This document shows positions 23,776 to 30,698 of a DNA stretch of 64,000 nt, one piece after another; the first letter of the stretch is position 1, and each line of letters starts with the position of its first letter. Position numbers and translations under genes: made by a program. The DNA is taken from the sequence record MK234886; one strand, written 5' to 3'. The notes below the pieces were generated by a model. The model was not told where the DNA came from and made no database searches. It was given only the letters and a program-made list of their open reading frames with translations. The DNA comes from Escherichia phage AnYang.

Positions 23776-23782
23776 CAAAAAA

Positions 23783-23803
23783 GGAGAGCGTATGCTCTCC
23801 TTT
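23783..23803 (+). terminator. Rho-independent terminator after gene 54
   Basis: GGAGAGC-gtat-GCTCTCC hairpin followed by a T-rich stretch. Confidence 0.65.
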
Positions 23804-23810
23804 AGGGGGT

Positions 23811-24101
23811 TTATTTACGGAACGAAATGAAACCTGCAGCAGTCATTAATGGTTGCTTTTTAACAAATACCGTAACTGAAATAGGAGCTTCGGATTCAAG
23901 CTGACCGGTCACTACACCATTAAAAATGTTTTCGGTTTGTTCCGGCTGAGAAAAGTTCTCAACAGGTCGGATATCAAATTGCTTATCTTCACCGAAAACT
24001 CGACGCAATTCATTACCAACTGCACTGTCAAACTCTTCGGAAGCAGGGATAACGTTTTCAACTACCAGTTCTTGACCGTTAAAGCGGAATGCAGATTTCA
24101 T
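23811..24101 (-). CDS. Hypothetical protein (96 aa) downstream of the alt array
   Basis: ORF with RBS-like GAGGAG upstream; same position as the T4 alt.-1/-2/-3 small ORFs; no recognised domain. Confidence 0.5.
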   Translation of the reverse strand: MKSAFRFNGQELVVENVIPASEEFDSAVGNELRRVFGEDKQFDIRPVENFSQPEQTENIFNGVVTGQLESEAPISVTVFVKKQPLMTAAGFISFRK

Positions 24102-24158
24102 AATGTTCTCCTCATGTTTGTGTAAGGTAATAGTACCACATCCTTGTGGTGTTGTAAA

Positions 24159-26282
24159 CTACATTTTGAATTTATTTGGTAGAGCAGAGATATCCAAAGA
24201 TGCCGCTAAGATTTCCATAGCCTCGTTGCTTTCAGAAACAGATTCACTAACCAAGAACTGTTTAAAGCCATCCATCGGACGAACTTCACCGGTTTCCATC
24301 AAATGGTCGCCATCGTAAACAGATTCACTGAGCTCTGAAGGAGACATCACTGTAGCTTCCATAAGGTATTTGTGAGATACCCTATCATTCATAGCAAAAG
24401 CCGCTACTTTATCGACCTTCATCAATAATCCGCGCGGAAGGATAATTTCTGCTTCTTCAGCGTATTCTGTAAGGTCACCTGGAGCGATAACTTTAACTGC
24501 TTCAGCACCTCGAATAACCATACCAATTTCAGCAATTCTATCCGCAGGGCCTTCAGGTGCAATTGGATTACCAAACTCGTCTTCTTCCCATTCTACCTCT
24601 TCGTCATCGACTTCACCCACATCAGATGAACTACCACTAGCCAATTTAAACAACTCATCAGCGGAGGATAAAGAACCTTCACCACCAACAAAAACGGCTT
24701 GGTTGTCGAGGGCCATATAATTTTTACCGAATTCACCAAAGATGTTAGGTTTTAGTGAGGCAGATACAAAGTTCTTAAAGTAAAATGTTTTGTTATCAAT
24801 ATTATGGCGCAGAATTTTGTATGGCAAATCCTGACCACGATACAAAATAGTACCCTTAGGAAGTTTAATACCCTTAGTAAATGCTGAGTCTAAATCCTTA
24901 ATCAATTTAATAGCCGTTGTATTGTTTTCGGATTCAGGTTTACCTAAAAGGAATAAGTTCATAGGAGCATATTCAGCAGCGCAATATTCAATAATAGCAT
25001 TGCTTTCATCTTTGGTTAGGTCCTTAGGTTTAATGAGCTCACCTGAATAAGCATATGCATCACTAATAGAATCGTTAATTAGTTTATAAACGGCTTCCAT
25101 AGCGAAAGCAATTCGGGATGCTTTCTCTGAAGGGGAGCCTTTAAAACGGGTACTCAGGTTATTAACAATTTTCTTAATAATATCCAGACTATTGGTTGTA
25201 TTGATTTGCGAAAGGCCGCTTAAAAGTCTATCGACTTCTGTATTAAAAAATGCCATATTTTTAGAGTAAATTTCAAACCCTTGTTTATCTCTATTAGCAT
25301 AATTTAGTTTAAATTTACTATCAGTCATTAAAGCGTGCGTGAGAGCAATGGTGTATCTAAAGTTGGCAAGGTCCTCGCTCTTAGATTTAAACTGAGAAGC
25401 CTGGCGCATTTTGGTAATAGCACCTTTTTTAAAGTTCTGACTAATCTGCTCAATACCTTCGTTCTCAGGGCCTTCGGCAGTGTGAACCGGCACAGAAGCT
25501 TCAAACTCATTATAAACCTGCAATTCTTTAGGGGACAAAGTTTCAGGCTCAGCAGTAGAATACTGTGCGGCTGCTGCCATACGACGGGAAATCTTAGTAC
25601 GAGTAATAACAGCCTTATCAGTACGTTTCTCTTCAACCTTAGCAATACTTGCCGAGACGGCTTCGACCTTACTTACAGACTGACCTGTTTTCTTGGATAC
25701 ATAAACTTCGCCGACTTTAGAATCGACTTTGGTATAAAGGTCAGCATCAATTTCGGGCATACCTTTGATATCTTCAATATTAGTACCACGACGTACTAAA
25801 AGAACGTAGGTATGTTTACCACTGAATTGGAACATATCATCGACAACTTTAAACTTACCACCGGTACGGGCCATCGCCAAACGTGCCAATACCCGCTGAA
25901 CAGTAGGGCCTTTACCTTTCATTTTCTTGGTAGGAAAACGGAATAAAACCGCATCCATTTTAAGTTTGTTTACTTGTTCGTATGCAGTATCAAAAATGGT
26001 ATTCAGCGTACCGAGTGGATCGGTACCCAAACCACCTTTGAGTTCTGCCGGAGCGCCTTTAGCAGACAAACTCATTAAGATGACATGGACGTACTTATCG
26101 CCTGGCTTAACCATTTTAATAGCATCGCCTTCAGACGCGTATGAAACCATACGCGCCACTAAATTGTCATTACCAGGAGCATGAACCGCAAAAATCTGCG
26201 GTATGCCCGAGCCAGGTTTAAGATTTGTTACTGGGTAATTTTTTTTATCACTTTTATCAAAAACTTCGTTTAAATTTTCCAT
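24159..26282 (-). CDS. alt: Alt-like ADP-ribosyltransferase, paralog 1 (most downstream)
   Basis: 707 aa; conserved Alt N-terminal region and C-terminal ART motifs (YRGQ, FYFKNFVSASL, EIILPRGLLMKVDKV); N-terminal ~240 aa nearly identical to paralog 2. Confidence 0.85.
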   Translation of the reverse strand: MENLNEVFDKSDKKNYPVTNLKPGSGIPQIFAVHAPGNDNLVARMVSYASEGDAIKMVKPGDKYVHVILMSLSAKGAPAELKGGLGTDPLGTLNTIFDTAYEQVNKLKMDAVLFRFPTKKMKGKGPTVQRVLARLAMARTGGKFKVVDDMFQFSGKHTYVLLVRRGTNIEDIKGMPEIDADLYTKVDSKVGEVYVSKKTGQSVSKVEAVSASIAKVEEKRTDKAVITRTKISRRMAAAAQYSTAEPETLSPKELQVYNEFEASVPVHTAEGPENEGIEQISQNFKKGAITKMRQASQFKSKSEDLANFRYTIALTHALMTDSKFKLNYANRDKQGFEIYSKNMAFFNTEVDRLLSGLSQINTTNSLDIIKKIVNNLSTRFKGSPSEKASRIAFAMEAVYKLINDSISDAYAYSGELIKPKDLTKDESNAIIEYCAAEYAPMNLFLLGKPESENNTTAIKLIKDLDSAFTKGIKLPKGTILYRGQDLPYKILRHNIDNKTFYFKNFVSASLKPNIFGEFGKNYMALDNQAVFVGGEGSLSSADELFKLASGSSSDVGEVDDEEVEWEEDEFGNPIAPEGPADRIAEIGMVIRGAEAVKVIAPGDLTEYAEEAEIILPRGLLMKVDKVAAFAMNDRVSHKYLMEATVMSPSELSESVYDGDHLMETGEVRPMDGFKQFLVSESVSESNEAMEILAASLDISALPNKFKM

Positions 26283-26285
26283 TAT

Positions 26286-28331
26286 TTACCCTTGGATGAA
26301 TTTTTCTGGGATTTCGTCAAAATTAATACATGAAGCTAAAATAGGCATTATATCCACTTTGGTCGATTTGACAAATGAATCAAAAGACACAGGGTTGTCG
26401 GTCTCTGTTTCTACACCTTGGTAAACAACCAATTCGCCTGTTTCCATCAATGCATCACCATCATAGATAACCGCATTTTCTGCTAGTTGGTCTGTGGTCT
26501 GGATATCTGCTTCCAATAATTTGGTGTTGTAGTTTCCTTTATATGAAGCATCAGTAATTTTAGTAATCTTAACTGTAGTTCCACGTGGAAGAATAACCTC
26601 TTGTTCTGTTGGAGAACCTGACAATTCACCAGGCATAATTACGTTAATAGAGTCTGCACCAGAAATTTTCCAGCCGATGTTCATCATTGTATTTTCGGAA
26701 CTCGTCAGCATACTTGGAAGAACAATTTCATTATCGCCTTGGAAAGATGTCCCAGCGCGATAGTCTTGATGTACTGCTGCCATTGCGACGTTTGATACCC
26801 AGCCGCCAAAGATAATCGGCTTAAGGGACGTTGATACATAGTTCCTGAAATAAAACAATTTTGAGTGCTTGATTTTATCAAAAGTGTTAACATTTAAATA
26901 TTGGCCACGCCAAAGTGTAATATCAGGTGGCAATTTATGACCAATTTCAAATGCCGCATCCATATCATTAATTACTTCAATTACACGCTGACTATCAATG
27001 AATTCTGCATCCTCTTCATAATAATTACCCAACAAATAATTATTAACATCGGTATAATATTGGCCGCAATAAGAAGAAATAGCCTCACGCTGCTCATACT
27101 CAAATCGATTATCGCTATAACCTGCTGTAAAATGCATAAGACTTTCTGATGCTTCATTAGCAAAGTCGGTAACAGCAGCACTTATACGTTGAGCATACTC
27201 TTGTTCCCAAAGCTCTGCTGCATATTCTGACGCATCCATATTAGGAGGGGCCTCATTCATTTTTCTTTCGATAAATGCAGCTTTGCGAAGGTTAAGAATC
27301 TCTGCACATGATTCGGCAAAAATCTGCATCTGCTTCATACTGCCGACAGGAGCACGTTTAAGTTCACGATGCATACGGTTAAAAATTGGGTCAGAGTCTT
27401 CGACTCGAATTTCTTCTTTCCAAACACCATTTGCTCGCATAGCCGTATCTGCCGCGCGCATACGGTCCATAGTATTCGTTTCAGAAGGTCGAACAAAAAT
27501 TTCCAGTTCTTCATAATCATCGATAAGTTCTGCCGTAGCCGGTCGACTAAACTTAGCAGCTTCTGCATCAATTTCGTCCCAACCTTCCGGAACTTCATCT
27601 CGAGGAGAATATTGGGCTGCGGCTACAGCACGCCTAGAAATCTTGGTAGTAGTAATGACAGCCTTATCAGTACGTTTTTCTTCGACTGCCGCTATACTAG
27701 CAGATAGTGCTTCTATTTTGGTTACTGATTGGCCTGTTTTCTTAGAAACATAAACCTCACCAACTTTAGAATCGACTTTAGTATAAAGGTCAGCATCAAT
27801 TTCGGGCATACCTTTTATGTCCTCAATATTAGCTTGTTTACGAACCAGTAAAACATATGTATGTTTGCCTGTAAATTGATACAGGCCATCAACAACTTTA
27901 AACTTACCGCCAGTACGAGCCATAGCCAAACGAGCTAATACGCGCTGAATAGTGGGACCCTTACCTTTCATTTTCTTAGTAGGGAAACGGAAAAGAACTG
28001 CATCCATTTTAAGTTTATTTACTTGTTCATATACCGTATCGAAAATGGTATTCAATGTACCAAGTGGGTCAGAACCTAACCCACCTTTCAACTCGGCTGG
28101 GGTACCCTTAGCAGACAAACTCATCAAAATAACATGAACATATTTGTCGCCCGGCTTAACCATTTTAATAGCGTCTCCTTGAGACGCATAAGATACCATA
28201 CGAGCGACCAAGTTATCATTACCTGGTGCTTGGATAGAGAAAATCTGTGGAATACCGGAACCTGGTTTAAGATTTATTACTGGATAGTTTTTAGCGGAAT
28301 CACTATCAAAAACTTCGTTTAAATTTTCCAT
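26286..28331 (-). CDS. alt: Alt-like ADP-ribosyltransferase, paralog 2
   Basis: 681 aa; Alt N-terminal region, divergent centre, ART motifs WRGQ, FYFRNYVSTSL, EVILPRG. Confidence 0.85.
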   Translation of the reverse strand: MENLNEVFDSDSAKNYPVINLKPGSGIPQIFSIQAPGNDNLVARMVSYASQGDAIKMVKPGDKYVHVILMSLSAKGTPAELKGGLGSDPLGTLNTIFDTVYEQVNKLKMDAVLFRFPTKKMKGKGPTIQRVLARLAMARTGGKFKVVDGLYQFTGKHTYVLLVRKQANIEDIKGMPEIDADLYTKVDSKVGEVYVSKKTGQSVTKIEALSASIAAVEEKRTDKAVITTTKISRRAVAAAQYSPRDEVPEGWDEIDAEAAKFSRPATAELIDDYEELEIFVRPSETNTMDRMRAADTAMRANGVWKEEIRVEDSDPIFNRMHRELKRAPVGSMKQMQIFAESCAEILNLRKAAFIERKMNEAPPNMDASEYAAELWEQEYAQRISAAVTDFANEASESLMHFTAGYSDNRFEYEQREAISSYCGQYYTDVNNYLLGNYYEEDAEFIDSQRVIEVINDMDAAFEIGHKLPPDITLWRGQYLNVNTFDKIKHSKLFYFRNYVSTSLKPIIFGGWVSNVAMAAVHQDYRAGTSFQGDNEIVLPSMLTSSENTMMNIGWKISGADSINVIMPGELSGSPTEQEVILPRGTTVKITKITDASYKGNYNTKLLEADIQTTDQLAENAVIYDGDALMETGELVVYQGVETETDNPVSFDSFVKSTKVDIMPILASCINFDEIPEKFIQG

Positions 28332-28334
28332 TAT

Positions 28335-30419
28335 TTACCCTTGGATGAATTTTTCTGGGATGTCATAGAGGTCTATGCATGAAGCCAAAAGAGACAGCAC
28401 ATCAACCCGTGTAGATTTAACAAATGAATCAAAAGATACGGGGCTTTCGGAAGTATCGAAATCATCTTGATATACGACCAACTCGCCGGTTTCCATTAGT
28501 ACGTCACCATCATACACCACAGATTCTTGAAGCTCATCTGTTGTCATAACTTCAGCTTGGATGAGTTTTGTATTATTAGATGTTCTTCCATCATTATTAG
28601 ACGCATCTGTTATTTTATTAACTTTGACCATTAATCCACGCGGTAGAATAACTTCAGCTTCAGTTGCTATTCCGAGATTTCCTGGATATACAACATTAAC
28701 TTTATGAGCCCCATCAATCGCCCATCCTATTTGAACTTTAACGTAATCAGGATTTTCTTTATATGCTCTTATTTCATTAGGATTAATAGTTATTCCTTCT
28801 TCATTTTTATCGACCGTCAATTCATTACGAACTTCCGGTTCTAAAAGACCGATACCGGCGTGCGTAACACCAAAACGACCAAAAATGATAGGAGTTAAAG
28901 AAGTAGATACAAAATTTCTGAAATAGAACACTTTATTTTTAACTAGTGCTTCGTATATAGGAGCAGTCATACTCTGTGCACGATAAACTGTGATGCCTTC
29001 TGGTATACGGTCGCCATTTTCGAAAGCAGAATCCAAATTATTAACTGCAGATTCGATATCTTTTTCACTCATAATCTCATAGTTCTGAGGATTGTAACGA
29101 CCTAAAAGAAGGTTATTTATATCGCCGTATCCAGAGCCACAATATTCTCTGATGCCACGCTTTTGTGATGGGGTGTATTTAGAACCCTCACGAGCAATAG
29201 TAATATCAATCATTGAACCACCACCCACACCAGCAAAACTATACACGCGTTTTTTAATGAATTTGGTCTTGGATGCTTTCCACTTGGACTCGGTCAATTC
29301 ATTCCAGAGGTCGTCAGGTTGGCCTTTACGAGTTTTGTTATGCGTAGCCAACCATTCGCCTTTGTATTCTTCGAAAACGGTATTAATAGCAGAGGCATAT
29401 TTTTCTAGAGCTTTAACAGATGTCAAAGGTTCGTTTTTGATGGCTGATAGGATTTTCTCTTTAATTTTCTCTTTGATTTCACCTATACCGTGAAGAGGAA
29501 ACATTTTATAATCGTAATGCAATTCTTCAGCAGTGCCTTCAGCTACTATATTAGCAACCTTATTTTTAGCCGCAGGAGAATTGTTATTAGTAACCATTTC
29601 CTGGGCCTCAGGGATTAATGGAGCTGTTGCAGGTTTATTAAAATCTACGGCATTTGCTTCATATTTCTTAAACAGTTCACTTTCATTACGATAAGATTCT
29701 AACGATTGACTTGCTGCAATGGCACGACGAGAAATCTTAGTCTTGGTTATAACCATTTTATCAGTGCGACGTTCTTCAACTTTAGCAATACTGCCGGCAA
29801 TAGCAGTTTCTTTAGTAACCTGCACACCTTCTTTTTTAGAAATATAAACTTCACCGACATCAGAATCTACCTTAGTATATAATTCAGCATTAATTCCTGG
29901 CATACCTTTGATATCTTCGATATCGGCCTGTTTACGAACTACTAGGATATAAGTATGCTTGCCTGTAAATTGGTACATAGCTGGAATTACTTTGAAGCGC
30001 CCACCAGTTTTTTGAGTTACTAAACGTTGGATAATTCTCTGGACAATAGGGCCTTGTCCTTTCATTTTCTTGGTAGGAAAACGGAACATCACGGCATCCA
30101 TACGAAGCTTTTTAACTTGTTCGAATACTGCGTCGAAAATGGTATTAATAGCATCAATAGGAGTGGGACCAAGGCCACCCTTAAGTTCGGCTGGAGTACC
30201 TTTAGCTGATAAACTCATCAAAATAACGTGGGCATATTTATCACCCAATTTAACTTGTTTAATGGCGTCGCCTTCAGAGGCATAGGATACCATACGAGCA
30301 ACCAATTGGGATTCTGCGTCGCCTATCTTCCAAATCTGGGGTACTTTAAGTTTAGGGTTCAAGTTTACTGTAGGCAGTGTGCCTTCGGACTCAAACACTT
30401 CATTTAATTGTTCGGTCAT
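28335..30419 (-). CDS. alt: Alt ADP-ribosyltransferase, paralog 3 (closest to T4 Alt)
   Basis: 694 aa; extensive identity to T4 Alt (682 aa) incl. ISRRAIAASQSLES, TPSQKRGIREYCGSGY, FYFRNFVSTSL, EVILPRGLMVKVNKITDAS. Confidence 0.92.
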   Translation of the reverse strand: MTEQLNEVFESEGTLPTVNLNPKLKVPQIWKIGDAESQLVARMVSYASEGDAIKQVKLGDKYAHVILMSLSAKGTPAELKGGLGPTPIDAINTIFDAVFEQVKKLRMDAVMFRFPTKKMKGQGPIVQRIIQRLVTQKTGGRFKVIPAMYQFTGKHTYILVVRKQADIEDIKGMPGINAELYTKVDSDVGEVYISKKEGVQVTKETAIAGSIAKVEERRTDKMVITKTKISRRAIAASQSLESYRNESELFKKYEANAVDFNKPATAPLIPEAQEMVTNNNSPAAKNKVANIVAEGTAEELHYDYKMFPLHGIGEIKEKIKEKILSAIKNEPLTSVKALEKYASAINTVFEEYKGEWLATHNKTRKGQPDDLWNELTESKWKASKTKFIKKRVYSFAGVGGGSMIDITIAREGSKYTPSQKRGIREYCGSGYGDINNLLLGRYNPQNYEIMSEKDIESAVNNLDSAFENGDRIPEGITVYRAQSMTAPIYEALVKNKVFYFRNFVSTSLTPIIFGRFGVTHAGIGLLEPEVRNELTVDKNEEGITINPNEIRAYKENPDYVKVQIGWAIDGAHKVNVVYPGNLGIATEAEVILPRGLMVKVNKITDASNNDGRTSNNTKLIQAEVMTTDELQESVVYDGDVLMETGELVVYQDDFDTSESPVSFDSFVKSTRVDVLSLLASCIDLYDIPEKFIQG

Positions 30420-30455
30420 AATAATTCCTCTTTAATAACCTTATTTATGCCAGAA

Positions 30456-30471
30456 AAGGCCCGAAGGCCTT
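30456..30471 (-). terminator. Stem-loop terminator upstream of the alt array (minus strand)
   Basis: AAGGCC-cgaa-GGCCTT hairpin followed on the minus strand by TTTTCTGG. Confidence 0.55.
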
Positions 30472-30473
30472 TA

Positions 30474-30698
30474 TTAAAGTACTAACAGCGTACGGTATAC
30501 TTCAAATTTAGGACCCTTTTCATAGCGGTCAAAATTATCTTTAAAATCGGCGAACGCGATTTCATTTTCAAATTCAAGGACAATTTGGGACACTGCAGTG
30601 GAGACATCGCCACCTTCTTTATATCCAATAACCACGGTTTCTAAATAAGCTTTCATATTATAGTCCAGTTTGAGACCAATCACCGAATACATCTTCAA
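30474..30698 (-). CDS. Hypothetical small protein between ligase and alt
   Basis: ORF overlapping the ligase 3' end; a start at MKAYLE (30656) would be coupled to the ligase stop; no recognised domain. Confidence 0.4.
   Translation of the reverse strand: MKMYSVIGLKLDYNMKAYLETVVIGYKEGGDVSTAVSQIVLEFENEIAFADFKDNFDRYEKGPKFEVYRTLLVL

Follow-up and report, generated by a model that had tools for sequence, protein, structure and literature searches.

The alt locus of Escherichia phage AnYang (Dhakavirus, 169,215 bp), analysed here within a stretch of 64,000 nucleotides (nt) of record MK234886 that we call the window, contains three genes for members of the Alt family of ADP-ribosyltransferases (ARTs), and it is likely that these constitute a cassette array of three predicted functional enzymes, old in origin, transcribed as a late operon, injected into the host and each acting on its own set of targets. 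Three uninterrupted open reading frames (ORFs) with ATG starts lie head to tail on the minus strand, exactly where an earlier note on this DNA had placed three full-length Alt paralogues, and encode proteins p1, p2 and p3 of 707, 681 and 694 amino acids (aa), respectively. The intergenic gaps in the p3–p2–p1 array are 3 nt each, with no ORFs between the genes, and the flanks (DNA ligase, gene 30, and alt.1 upstream; alt.-3 and the baseplate genes 54 and 48 downstream) place the array at the position of the T4 Alt locus. The array is real and is already in the public record, since all three proteins have been deposited and annotated as Alt-like: p1, p2 and p3 are letter for letter the consecutive RefSeq proteins YP_010100336, YP_010100337 and YP_010100338, each labelled 'Alt-like RNA polymerase ADP-ribosyltransferase'.

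Two- and three-gene alt arrays are common. The layout seen in AnYang is annotated in Dhakavirus MX01, whose locus DNA is 95.5% identical, and in QL01, C6, fDHCT2, KIT01, UGJNEcP3/4 and LHE83; WG01 and PSD9 are also annotated with three Alt-like genes, the array of WG01 having a different composition. The AnYang type of array is found in at least 10 independent genome records and in 7 metagenome or Sequence Read Archive assemblies, and two-gene arrays (alta plus altb) occur in JS98, JS10, IME08, IME341 and others. The earlier note had set AnYang against a T4 with one alt gene, and this premise is weak. In T4 (GT7, L003 4556–4902) the first 116 codons of an RB14-type alt.-2 survive as the alt.-1/alt.-2 ORFs, frameshifted and 96–98% identical, with which the GenBank note agrees, and close relatives keep that second copy whole. 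Partial and full-length alt duplicates have been described in T4, RB49 and 44RR (Nolan et al., 2006, PMC1524935).

Profile searches place all three proteins in the family of T4 Alt. Against Pfam PF03496 (ADPrib_exo_Tox; gathering cut-off 23.4 bits) the three proteins scored 64.9, 76.6 and 124 bits (E 8e-18 to 6.5e-36), and each matched phrog_802, the Alt family, from end to end (profile positions 1–2 to 674 of 674; E 1e-250 to 1e-262). The catalytic residues are R482, S507-x-S and E610-x-E612 in p1, R475, S500 and E576-x-E578 in p2, and R480, S505 and E587-x-E589 in p3, positions that align with R478, S503 and E574–E576 of T4. The earlier note had listed R-S-E catalytic motifs in every copy; the residues are indeed intact, but the spelling it gave is not general, as p3 reads VYRAQ rather than Y/WRGQ and p2 reads YVSTSL. 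The serine motif of p1 is S-A-S, not S-T-S. In this ART clade, S-x-S with the first serine intact is the general form of the motif and E-x-E is the form of the arginine-specific transferases. All segments of the three genes are under purifying selection, with ratios of non-synonymous to synonymous substitutions (dN/dS) of 0.03–0.22, and we predict that p1–p3 are functional arginine-specific mono-ADP-ribosyltransferases of the T4 Alt family. Precomputed annotations assign nearly all full-length Alt homologues to a further Pfam family, PF26846, which presumably covers the N-terminal or central part of Alt; our local Pfam scan did not report PF26846 for p1–p3. No PDB entry was matched in a sequence search with p3.

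The ancestry of the three genes emerges from an alignment of p1–p3 with JS98 alta and altb, T4 alt, the alt and alt.-2 genes of RB14 and the lone Alt of Gaprivervirus TH40, later extended by ten further Dhakavirus genes. The first of the proteins, p1, is 89–100% identical to JS98 altb along its whole length and collinear with alt.-2 of Tequatrovirus RB14 (centre 48%, ART domain 57%, tail 65%), whereas its identity to its own neighbour p3 is 12% in the centre and 35% in the ART domain. Since p1 matches alt.-2 along the full length, a two-gene array (alt or alta with alt.-2 or altb) predates the split between Dhakavirus and Tequatrovirus. In p3, the N-domain and tail are 98 and 95% identical to JS98 alta, while in the ART domain RB14 alt is the closer match, at 94% (up to 96% in nt) as against 60% for JS98 alta. 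The centre of p2 is 89% identical in aa to Gaprivervirus TH40 Alt (up to 95% in nt in 40-column windows; synonymous divergence, dS, of 0.40 over aa 240–368) and its ART domain 75%, compared with 18–21 and 34–38%, respectively, to its array neighbours. Judged by these alignments p2 is a mosaic, with an N-domain of altb type, a module of Gaprivervirus type and a tail of alta type, the module coming from neither neighbour; among the records surveyed, this type of centre is restricted to 10 three-copy Dhakavirus and 32 Gaprivervirus records.

The same pattern holds beyond AnYang. N-domains are 66–69% identical within a genus and 41–46% identical between positional counterparts across genera, and the modules behave in the opposite way. 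The KIT01 array combines a JS98-type gene, a TH40-type gene and altb, that of WG01 a novel 631-aa copy, an RB14-type gene and altb, and a copy in Bp7 (P0073) joins an altb-type N-domain (91–92% to p1 and p2) to a T4-type module (70% to T4 Alt). Among 175 Alt representatives, grouped by single linkage at ≥85% identity so that the clusters are indicative only, one alta-type N-domain cluster was joined to 4 module clusters and the altb-type to 3, and module clusters were likewise joined to several N-domain clusters. The alignments show an old origin, the alta/alt and altb/alt.-2 classes predating the split of the genera and the modules having later been swapped between genera by recombination in the conserved flanks; the locus accordingly behaves as a cassette array in which a lineage-specific N-domain and a C-propeptide surround exchangeable helical-plus-ART modules. 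The 631-aa gene of WG01 (L011, 7076–8971), which occupies the first position, has an N-domain only 62–66% identical to the others and a centre at most 21% identical to any compared, and lacks the conserved C-terminal propeptide (17%). The alt locus of vB_EcoM_CUA3 (L013, 4198–6293) holds 415 N and a 213-nt 'ADP-ribosyltransferase' fragment, which represents an assembly gap and not a natural truncation, and with those 415 N the record was left out of the comparison.

How two- and three-copy arrays are related can be read from 157 informative sites in the N-domain coding sequences of p2 and p1. The altb gene of all five two-copy phages (5/5), and that of WG01, is p2-like at its 5' end and switches to p1-like from roughly nt 190–340 onward, so that one form passes into the other by a single crossover between tandem N-domain repeats.

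Each protein appears to consist of four parts: an N-propeptide of 6–7 residues ending in L-N-E, an alpha/beta N-domain of about 225 aa, an effector module, and a C-propeptide of 54–63 aa that follows an L-x-E motif. The effector module, predicted to be exchangeable between phages, would comprise a helical bundle of about 160 aa and an ART domain of the C3/Vis/iota type. AlphaFold models of p3 and p1 (mean predicted local distance difference test, pLDDT, 80.6 and 79.0) share one layout of alpha/beta N-domain (residues ~17–218), linker, helical bundle, ART core and low-confidence C-terminal tail. The linker lies at the conserved TKISRR boundary and is modelled with lower confidence (pLDDT ~50–70), the bundle is confident (residues 248–410 of p3, with pLDDT >90, and 251–417 of p1), the number and order of helices are alike in the two models, and the ART part is predicted to adopt a C3/VIP2-type fold.

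The processing motifs are those expected of packaged Alt. T4 Alt is cut by the gp21 prohead protease at ITE-6 and LTE-619, losing 6 and 63 residues (PMC5694885, PMC9026906), and L-x-E is present at both homologous sites in p1 (LNE-6, LSE-653), p2 (LNE-6, LAE-618) and p3 (LNE-7, LQE-632); the tail motif YDGDxLMETGE is also conserved in all three. The genes p3, p2 and p1 would be read as a single late transcript from the motif CATAAATA upstream of p3, and translation would be coupled across the TAA-ATA-ATG junctions, where Shine–Dalgarno-like AAGGG sequences for p2 and p1 lie inside the coding end of the preceding gene. A promoter scan and the junction sequence revealed no separate early promoter for p2 or p1, and the number of sigma-70 promoter-like sites in the region (20) equalled that expected from shuffles (20.0). 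An early-type promoter-like site directly after the p1 stop probably marks the end of the alt transcription unit. In the window as a whole 19 TATAAATA motifs were present against 7.2 expected from shuffles; 10 of the 19 are on the plus strand within 1–14 kb, a group consistent with a late structural-gene cluster there. A perfect TATAAATA inside p3 (29114–29121, minus strand) was considered as a promoter for p2 and p1 and discarded: it is found only in AnYang and MX01, overlaps conserved DINN codons and is probably due to chance. Our working hypothesis is that the three proteins are built into the prohead core, trimmed by gp21 at both ends like T4 Alt and injected with the DNA, whereupon each enzyme would ADP-ribosylate its own set of host proteins, with specificity residing in the helical domain, in the loop that precedes E-x-E and in the stretch from S-x-S to E-x-E.

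Features of the AnYang alt locus (positions are those of the window; strand '.' marks a feature read in both directions)
Feature	Position	Strand	Basis or remark
alt.1-like small ORF, upstream of the array (context)	30474..30698	-	placed like alt.1 of T4 and JS98, with gene 30 on one side and the first alt gene on the other; 60 aa annotated in MX01
Terminator-like hairpin AGGCC-TTCG-GGCCT then TTTCT, directly after the alt.1 stop	30452..30470	-	read from the sequence, below the scanner's listed-hit size; putative function
Late-promoter-like CATAAATA, 22 nt upstream of the p3 ATG	30442..30449	-	one mismatch to the T4 consensus TATAAATA; putative
Shine–Dalgarno GAGG of p3	30427-30430	-	sequence
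p3, alta-slot gene, 694 aa, YP_010100338	28335..30419	-	ORF, Pfam, PHROG, alignments, model; 95–100% identity to JS98 alta in N-domain and tail
p3 N-propeptide, to LNE-7		-	alignments, model
p3 N-domain, aa 8-232	29724-30398	-	alignments, model
p3 helical domain, aa 245-410	29190-29687	-	
p3 ART domain, aa 411-632	28524-29189	-	
p3 C-propeptide, aa 633-694	28338-28523	-	
Junction repeat copy B: last 8 codons of p3, TAA, ATA, first 9 codons of p2	28304..28361	-	
p2, middle gene, mosaic, 681 aa, YP_010100337	26286..28331	-	alignments, segment tables
p2 altb-type N-domain, aa 7-235	27627-28313	-	
p2 Gaprivervirus-type helical+ART module, aa 236-618	26478-27626	-	
p2 alta-type C-propeptide, aa 619-681	26289-26477	-	
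Junction repeat copy A: end of p2, TAA, ATA, start of p1	26255..26312	-	
p1, altb-slot gene, 707 aa, YP_010100336	24159..26282	-	ORF, Pfam, PHROG, alignments, model
p1 N-domain, aa 7-235	25578-26264	-	
p1 altb/alt.-2-class helical+ART module, aa 236-653	24324-25577	-	
p1 disordered acidic insert, aa 551-578	24549-24632	-	
p1 C-propeptide, aa 654-707	24162-24323	-	
Early-type promoter-like site: TTTACA, 17 nt spacer, TACTAT, with TG; directly after the p1 stop	24130..24158	-	consensus match only; would serve alt.-3
alt.-3 homologue, 96 aa, downstream neighbour (context)	23811..24101	-	ORF, position
10-bp GC-rich hairpin, bidirectional terminator-like, between alt.-3 and gene 54	23780..23803	.	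sequence scan

The earlier note had explained the array as a tandem triplication with at least one recent duplication, and a recent triplication of a single alt gene whose copies then diverged very fast in the centre would account for the head-to-tail layout, for the junction repeat and for the likeness of the p1 and p2 N-termini. Its observations stand in good part. The stop/start junction does recur, as an exact 58-nt block in copies A and B with flanks of about 75–80% identity, and the centres are as dissimilar as claimed: they are 12–21% identical to each other, that of p1 gave no BLASTP match to those of p2 and p3 and an HHalign probability of 1.4%, and those of p2 and p3 show weak collinearity (21% over 168 aa, E 7e-4). 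The centre is not the only divergent part, however, since the ART domains are mutually only 34–38% identical, and the loop before E-x-E, the segment from S-x-S to E-x-E and the helical bundle are wholly different from copy to copy. Described as nearly identical, the first 235 residues of p1 and p2 share 89% identity in protein but only ~78% in DNA, with a saturated dS of 1.7 (dN/dS 0.05, Nei–Gojobori). Moreover, the closer relative of each module sits in another genus rather than in its own array, and the junction is also found in two-copy JS98, where alta and altb are linked by the same sequence with three substitutions; RB14 alt and alt.-2 are linked by a related one. The junction repeat is for this reason an inherited alta-stop/altb-start junction and no mark of fresh duplication, and its two copies are explained by the recombination, within the coding sequence of the repeated N-domain, by which two-copy and three-copy arrays differ. 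Recent triplication is consequently very improbable. An artefact of assembly, by collapse or expansion of a repeat, could be suspected from the tandem layout alone, but direct-repeat detection found no long stretch above ~80% DNA identity between copies, and as the copies differ throughout and the array recurs in at least 10 independently sequenced phages and several metagenome assemblies, we regard this explanation as excluded for practical purposes.

With regard to function, it is plausible that the three enzymes have different host targets, and this is the most economical reading, because the substrate-facing parts differ and the N-domain and both gp21 motifs are kept. The loop before E-x-E is the ARTT region, which reads the substrate in C3-like enzymes. 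The main rival is redundancy, in which all three enzymes have RNA polymerase alpha as their main substrate, like T4 Alt, and their diversity reflects escape from host factors that recognize or inhibit Alt, or drift. Identical catalytic residues and a shared overall architecture would fit this, as would the finding that alt is non-essential in T4 (PMC9026906); however, two or three intact copies have long been kept under purifying selection in many lineages, the split between the altb/alt.-2 and alta/alt classes is conserved across genera, and the very loop and segment thought to face the substrate are wholly different between copies, so that redundancy seems to us unlikely. It could also be argued that only one copy is packaged and injected, the others acting intracellularly like ModA and ModB or serving as catalytically dead scaffolds. 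With about 40 Alt molecules per T4 head (PMC9958956) three paralogues would compete for limited sites, and p1 has both S-A-S and a long acidic insert. Yet the N-domain, both L-x-E motifs and the conserved C-propeptide are present in all three proteins, p2 and p1 have no early promoters of their own, and S-A-S retains the first serine that the general motif form calls for; we consider a single packaged copy improbable.

The reach of the N-domain bears on the delivery step of the proposed array. In a survey of its cargo only 71 clusters were found among 1.84 billion representatives. When 10 proteins of atypical length were scanned, 5 gave a clear Pfam ART match and 1 a weak, sub-threshold one; 3 of the remaining 4 were read by eye, of which 2 have divergent ART-like motifs and only P0265 looks non-ART. 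The proteins in question, P0265 (541 aa), P0262 (1142 aa), P0260 and P0261, are metagenomic and carry the Alt N-domain, the remainder being without a Pfam or PHROG match; the divergent motifs are those of P0262 and P0260, the latter with K in place of the catalytic R, and P0265 may represent a non-ART cargo on an Alt N-domain. A role for the N-domain as a general delivery domain for other cargo was thus set aside, as it is almost never found without an ART module.

Several points weigh against a late, injected array of enzymes with separate targets. As the N-domain so rarely occurs without an ART module, its delivery role rests on the pattern of conservation only. The helical domain is a specificity determinant that we infer, and a structure search with it gave no diagnostic match. 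The putative promoter CATAAATA departs from the late consensus TATAAATA at its first base, a T of the late motif whose conservation among T4 relatives is poor (Nolan et al., 2006, PMC1524935). Origin of the three-copy form by insertion and of the two-copy form by deletion would give an identical breakpoint pattern. Finally, our literature search found no virion proteomics for a Dhakavirus and no functional studies of Alt paralogues.

Among known systems the closest is T4 Alt itself (gpAlt, UniProt P12726), which shares with p1–p3 its locus, length, collinear architecture, the R, S-x-S and E-x-E residues, the positions of the two gp21 motifs and YDGDxLMETGE, but differs in sequence: identity to T4 in the centre and ART domain is 33 and 63% for p3, 21 and 38% for p2, and 14 and 37% for p1, with N-domains at 41–45%. 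No copy carries a T4-type module, and the biochemistry of T4 Alt (RNA polymerase alpha Arg265, MazF) is therefore not simply transferable. Compared with the two-gene arrays (alta and altb of JS98, JS10 and IME08; alt and alt.-2 of RB14 and T6), p3 occupies the alta slot, p1 corresponds to altb and the linking junction is the same, whereas in AnYang a further gene, with a Gaprivervirus-type module, stands in the middle, and the module of p3 is of the RB14 and not the JS98 type. The C3-like and binary-toxin ARTs (Vis, C3bot, CPILE-a/iota, VIP2, Certhrax) are, by contrast, secreted bacterial toxins with other delivery domains and lack the Alt N-domain, the helical bundle and protease-removed propeptides. 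T4 ModA and ModB belong to the same ART clade; they are early proteins of ~200 aa, not packaged and without N-domain or propeptides, unlike p1–p3, which at 681–707 aa have both.

More distant parallels lie in other delivered proteins. T4's internal proteins (IPI, IPII, IPIII) are packaged, processed by gp21 and injected, as is predicted for the Alt array, and combine a conserved targeting part with effectors that are diverse across T-even phages (PMC3012670). In the internal proteins, however, the conserved part is a propeptide of 10–20 residues (the capsid targeting sequence) and the effectors are small and non-enzymatic, whereas in the Alt array it is a folded domain of 225 aa together with a C-propeptide, and every cargo is an ART. 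Polymorphic toxins (Rhs and contact-dependent inhibition systems) are alike by analogy only, in having a constant delivery part, a variable enzymatic module that recombination exchanges at a conserved boundary, and alternative tips arrayed in tandem; they differ in that the alt array, with its 3-nt gaps, has no immunity genes, its copies are full length and not orphan tips, and delivery is by ejection from the phage head.

As to the surroundings of the array, the alt.-3 homologue directly downstream of p1 has the 96-aa length of T4 Alt.-3. Mutants of T4 Alt.-3 with a C-terminal extension escape the CmdTAC defence system (PMC11618068). The NCBIfam search gave no match for p1, p2, p3 or alt.-3, and tRNA and Rfam scans of the whole window gave none either.

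The discovery value of these results is limited, as deposited and annotated records of the genes exist and paralogy of alt has been on record since 2003–2006; the central question is the target of each module. What we contribute is an incremental evolutionary point, namely the old paralogue classes, the exchange of modules across genera and the interconversion of two- and three-copy arrays, and in the literature we found no paper stating module exchange, the assembly of alt arrays from old paralogues or this interconversion. Published targets of T4 Alt include RNA polymerase and MazF (PMC10468400, PMC10286901). It is possible, though we put this forward only tentatively, that the alt locus of T-even phages in general is a polymorphic injected-effector array, in which the N-domain and C-propeptide would serve both as delivery parts and as recombination arms, and modules traded between genera would be stacked two or three deep, each with a different set of host targets that might include MazF-like defence proteins, the composition of the array helping to set host range. 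Alt is the textbook enzyme injected with phage DNA for host takeover, and to our knowledge its biochemistry is known for the T4 version only. AnYang carries three different, apparently working versions, none of the T4 type, in which the modules cross genera and the N-domain remains tied to its lineage. Should the modules differ in their targets, such arrays would provide a compact natural panel for studying how ART specificity is coded and whether injected ARTs counter host defences, and they would be relevant to the host range of therapeutic T4-like phages.

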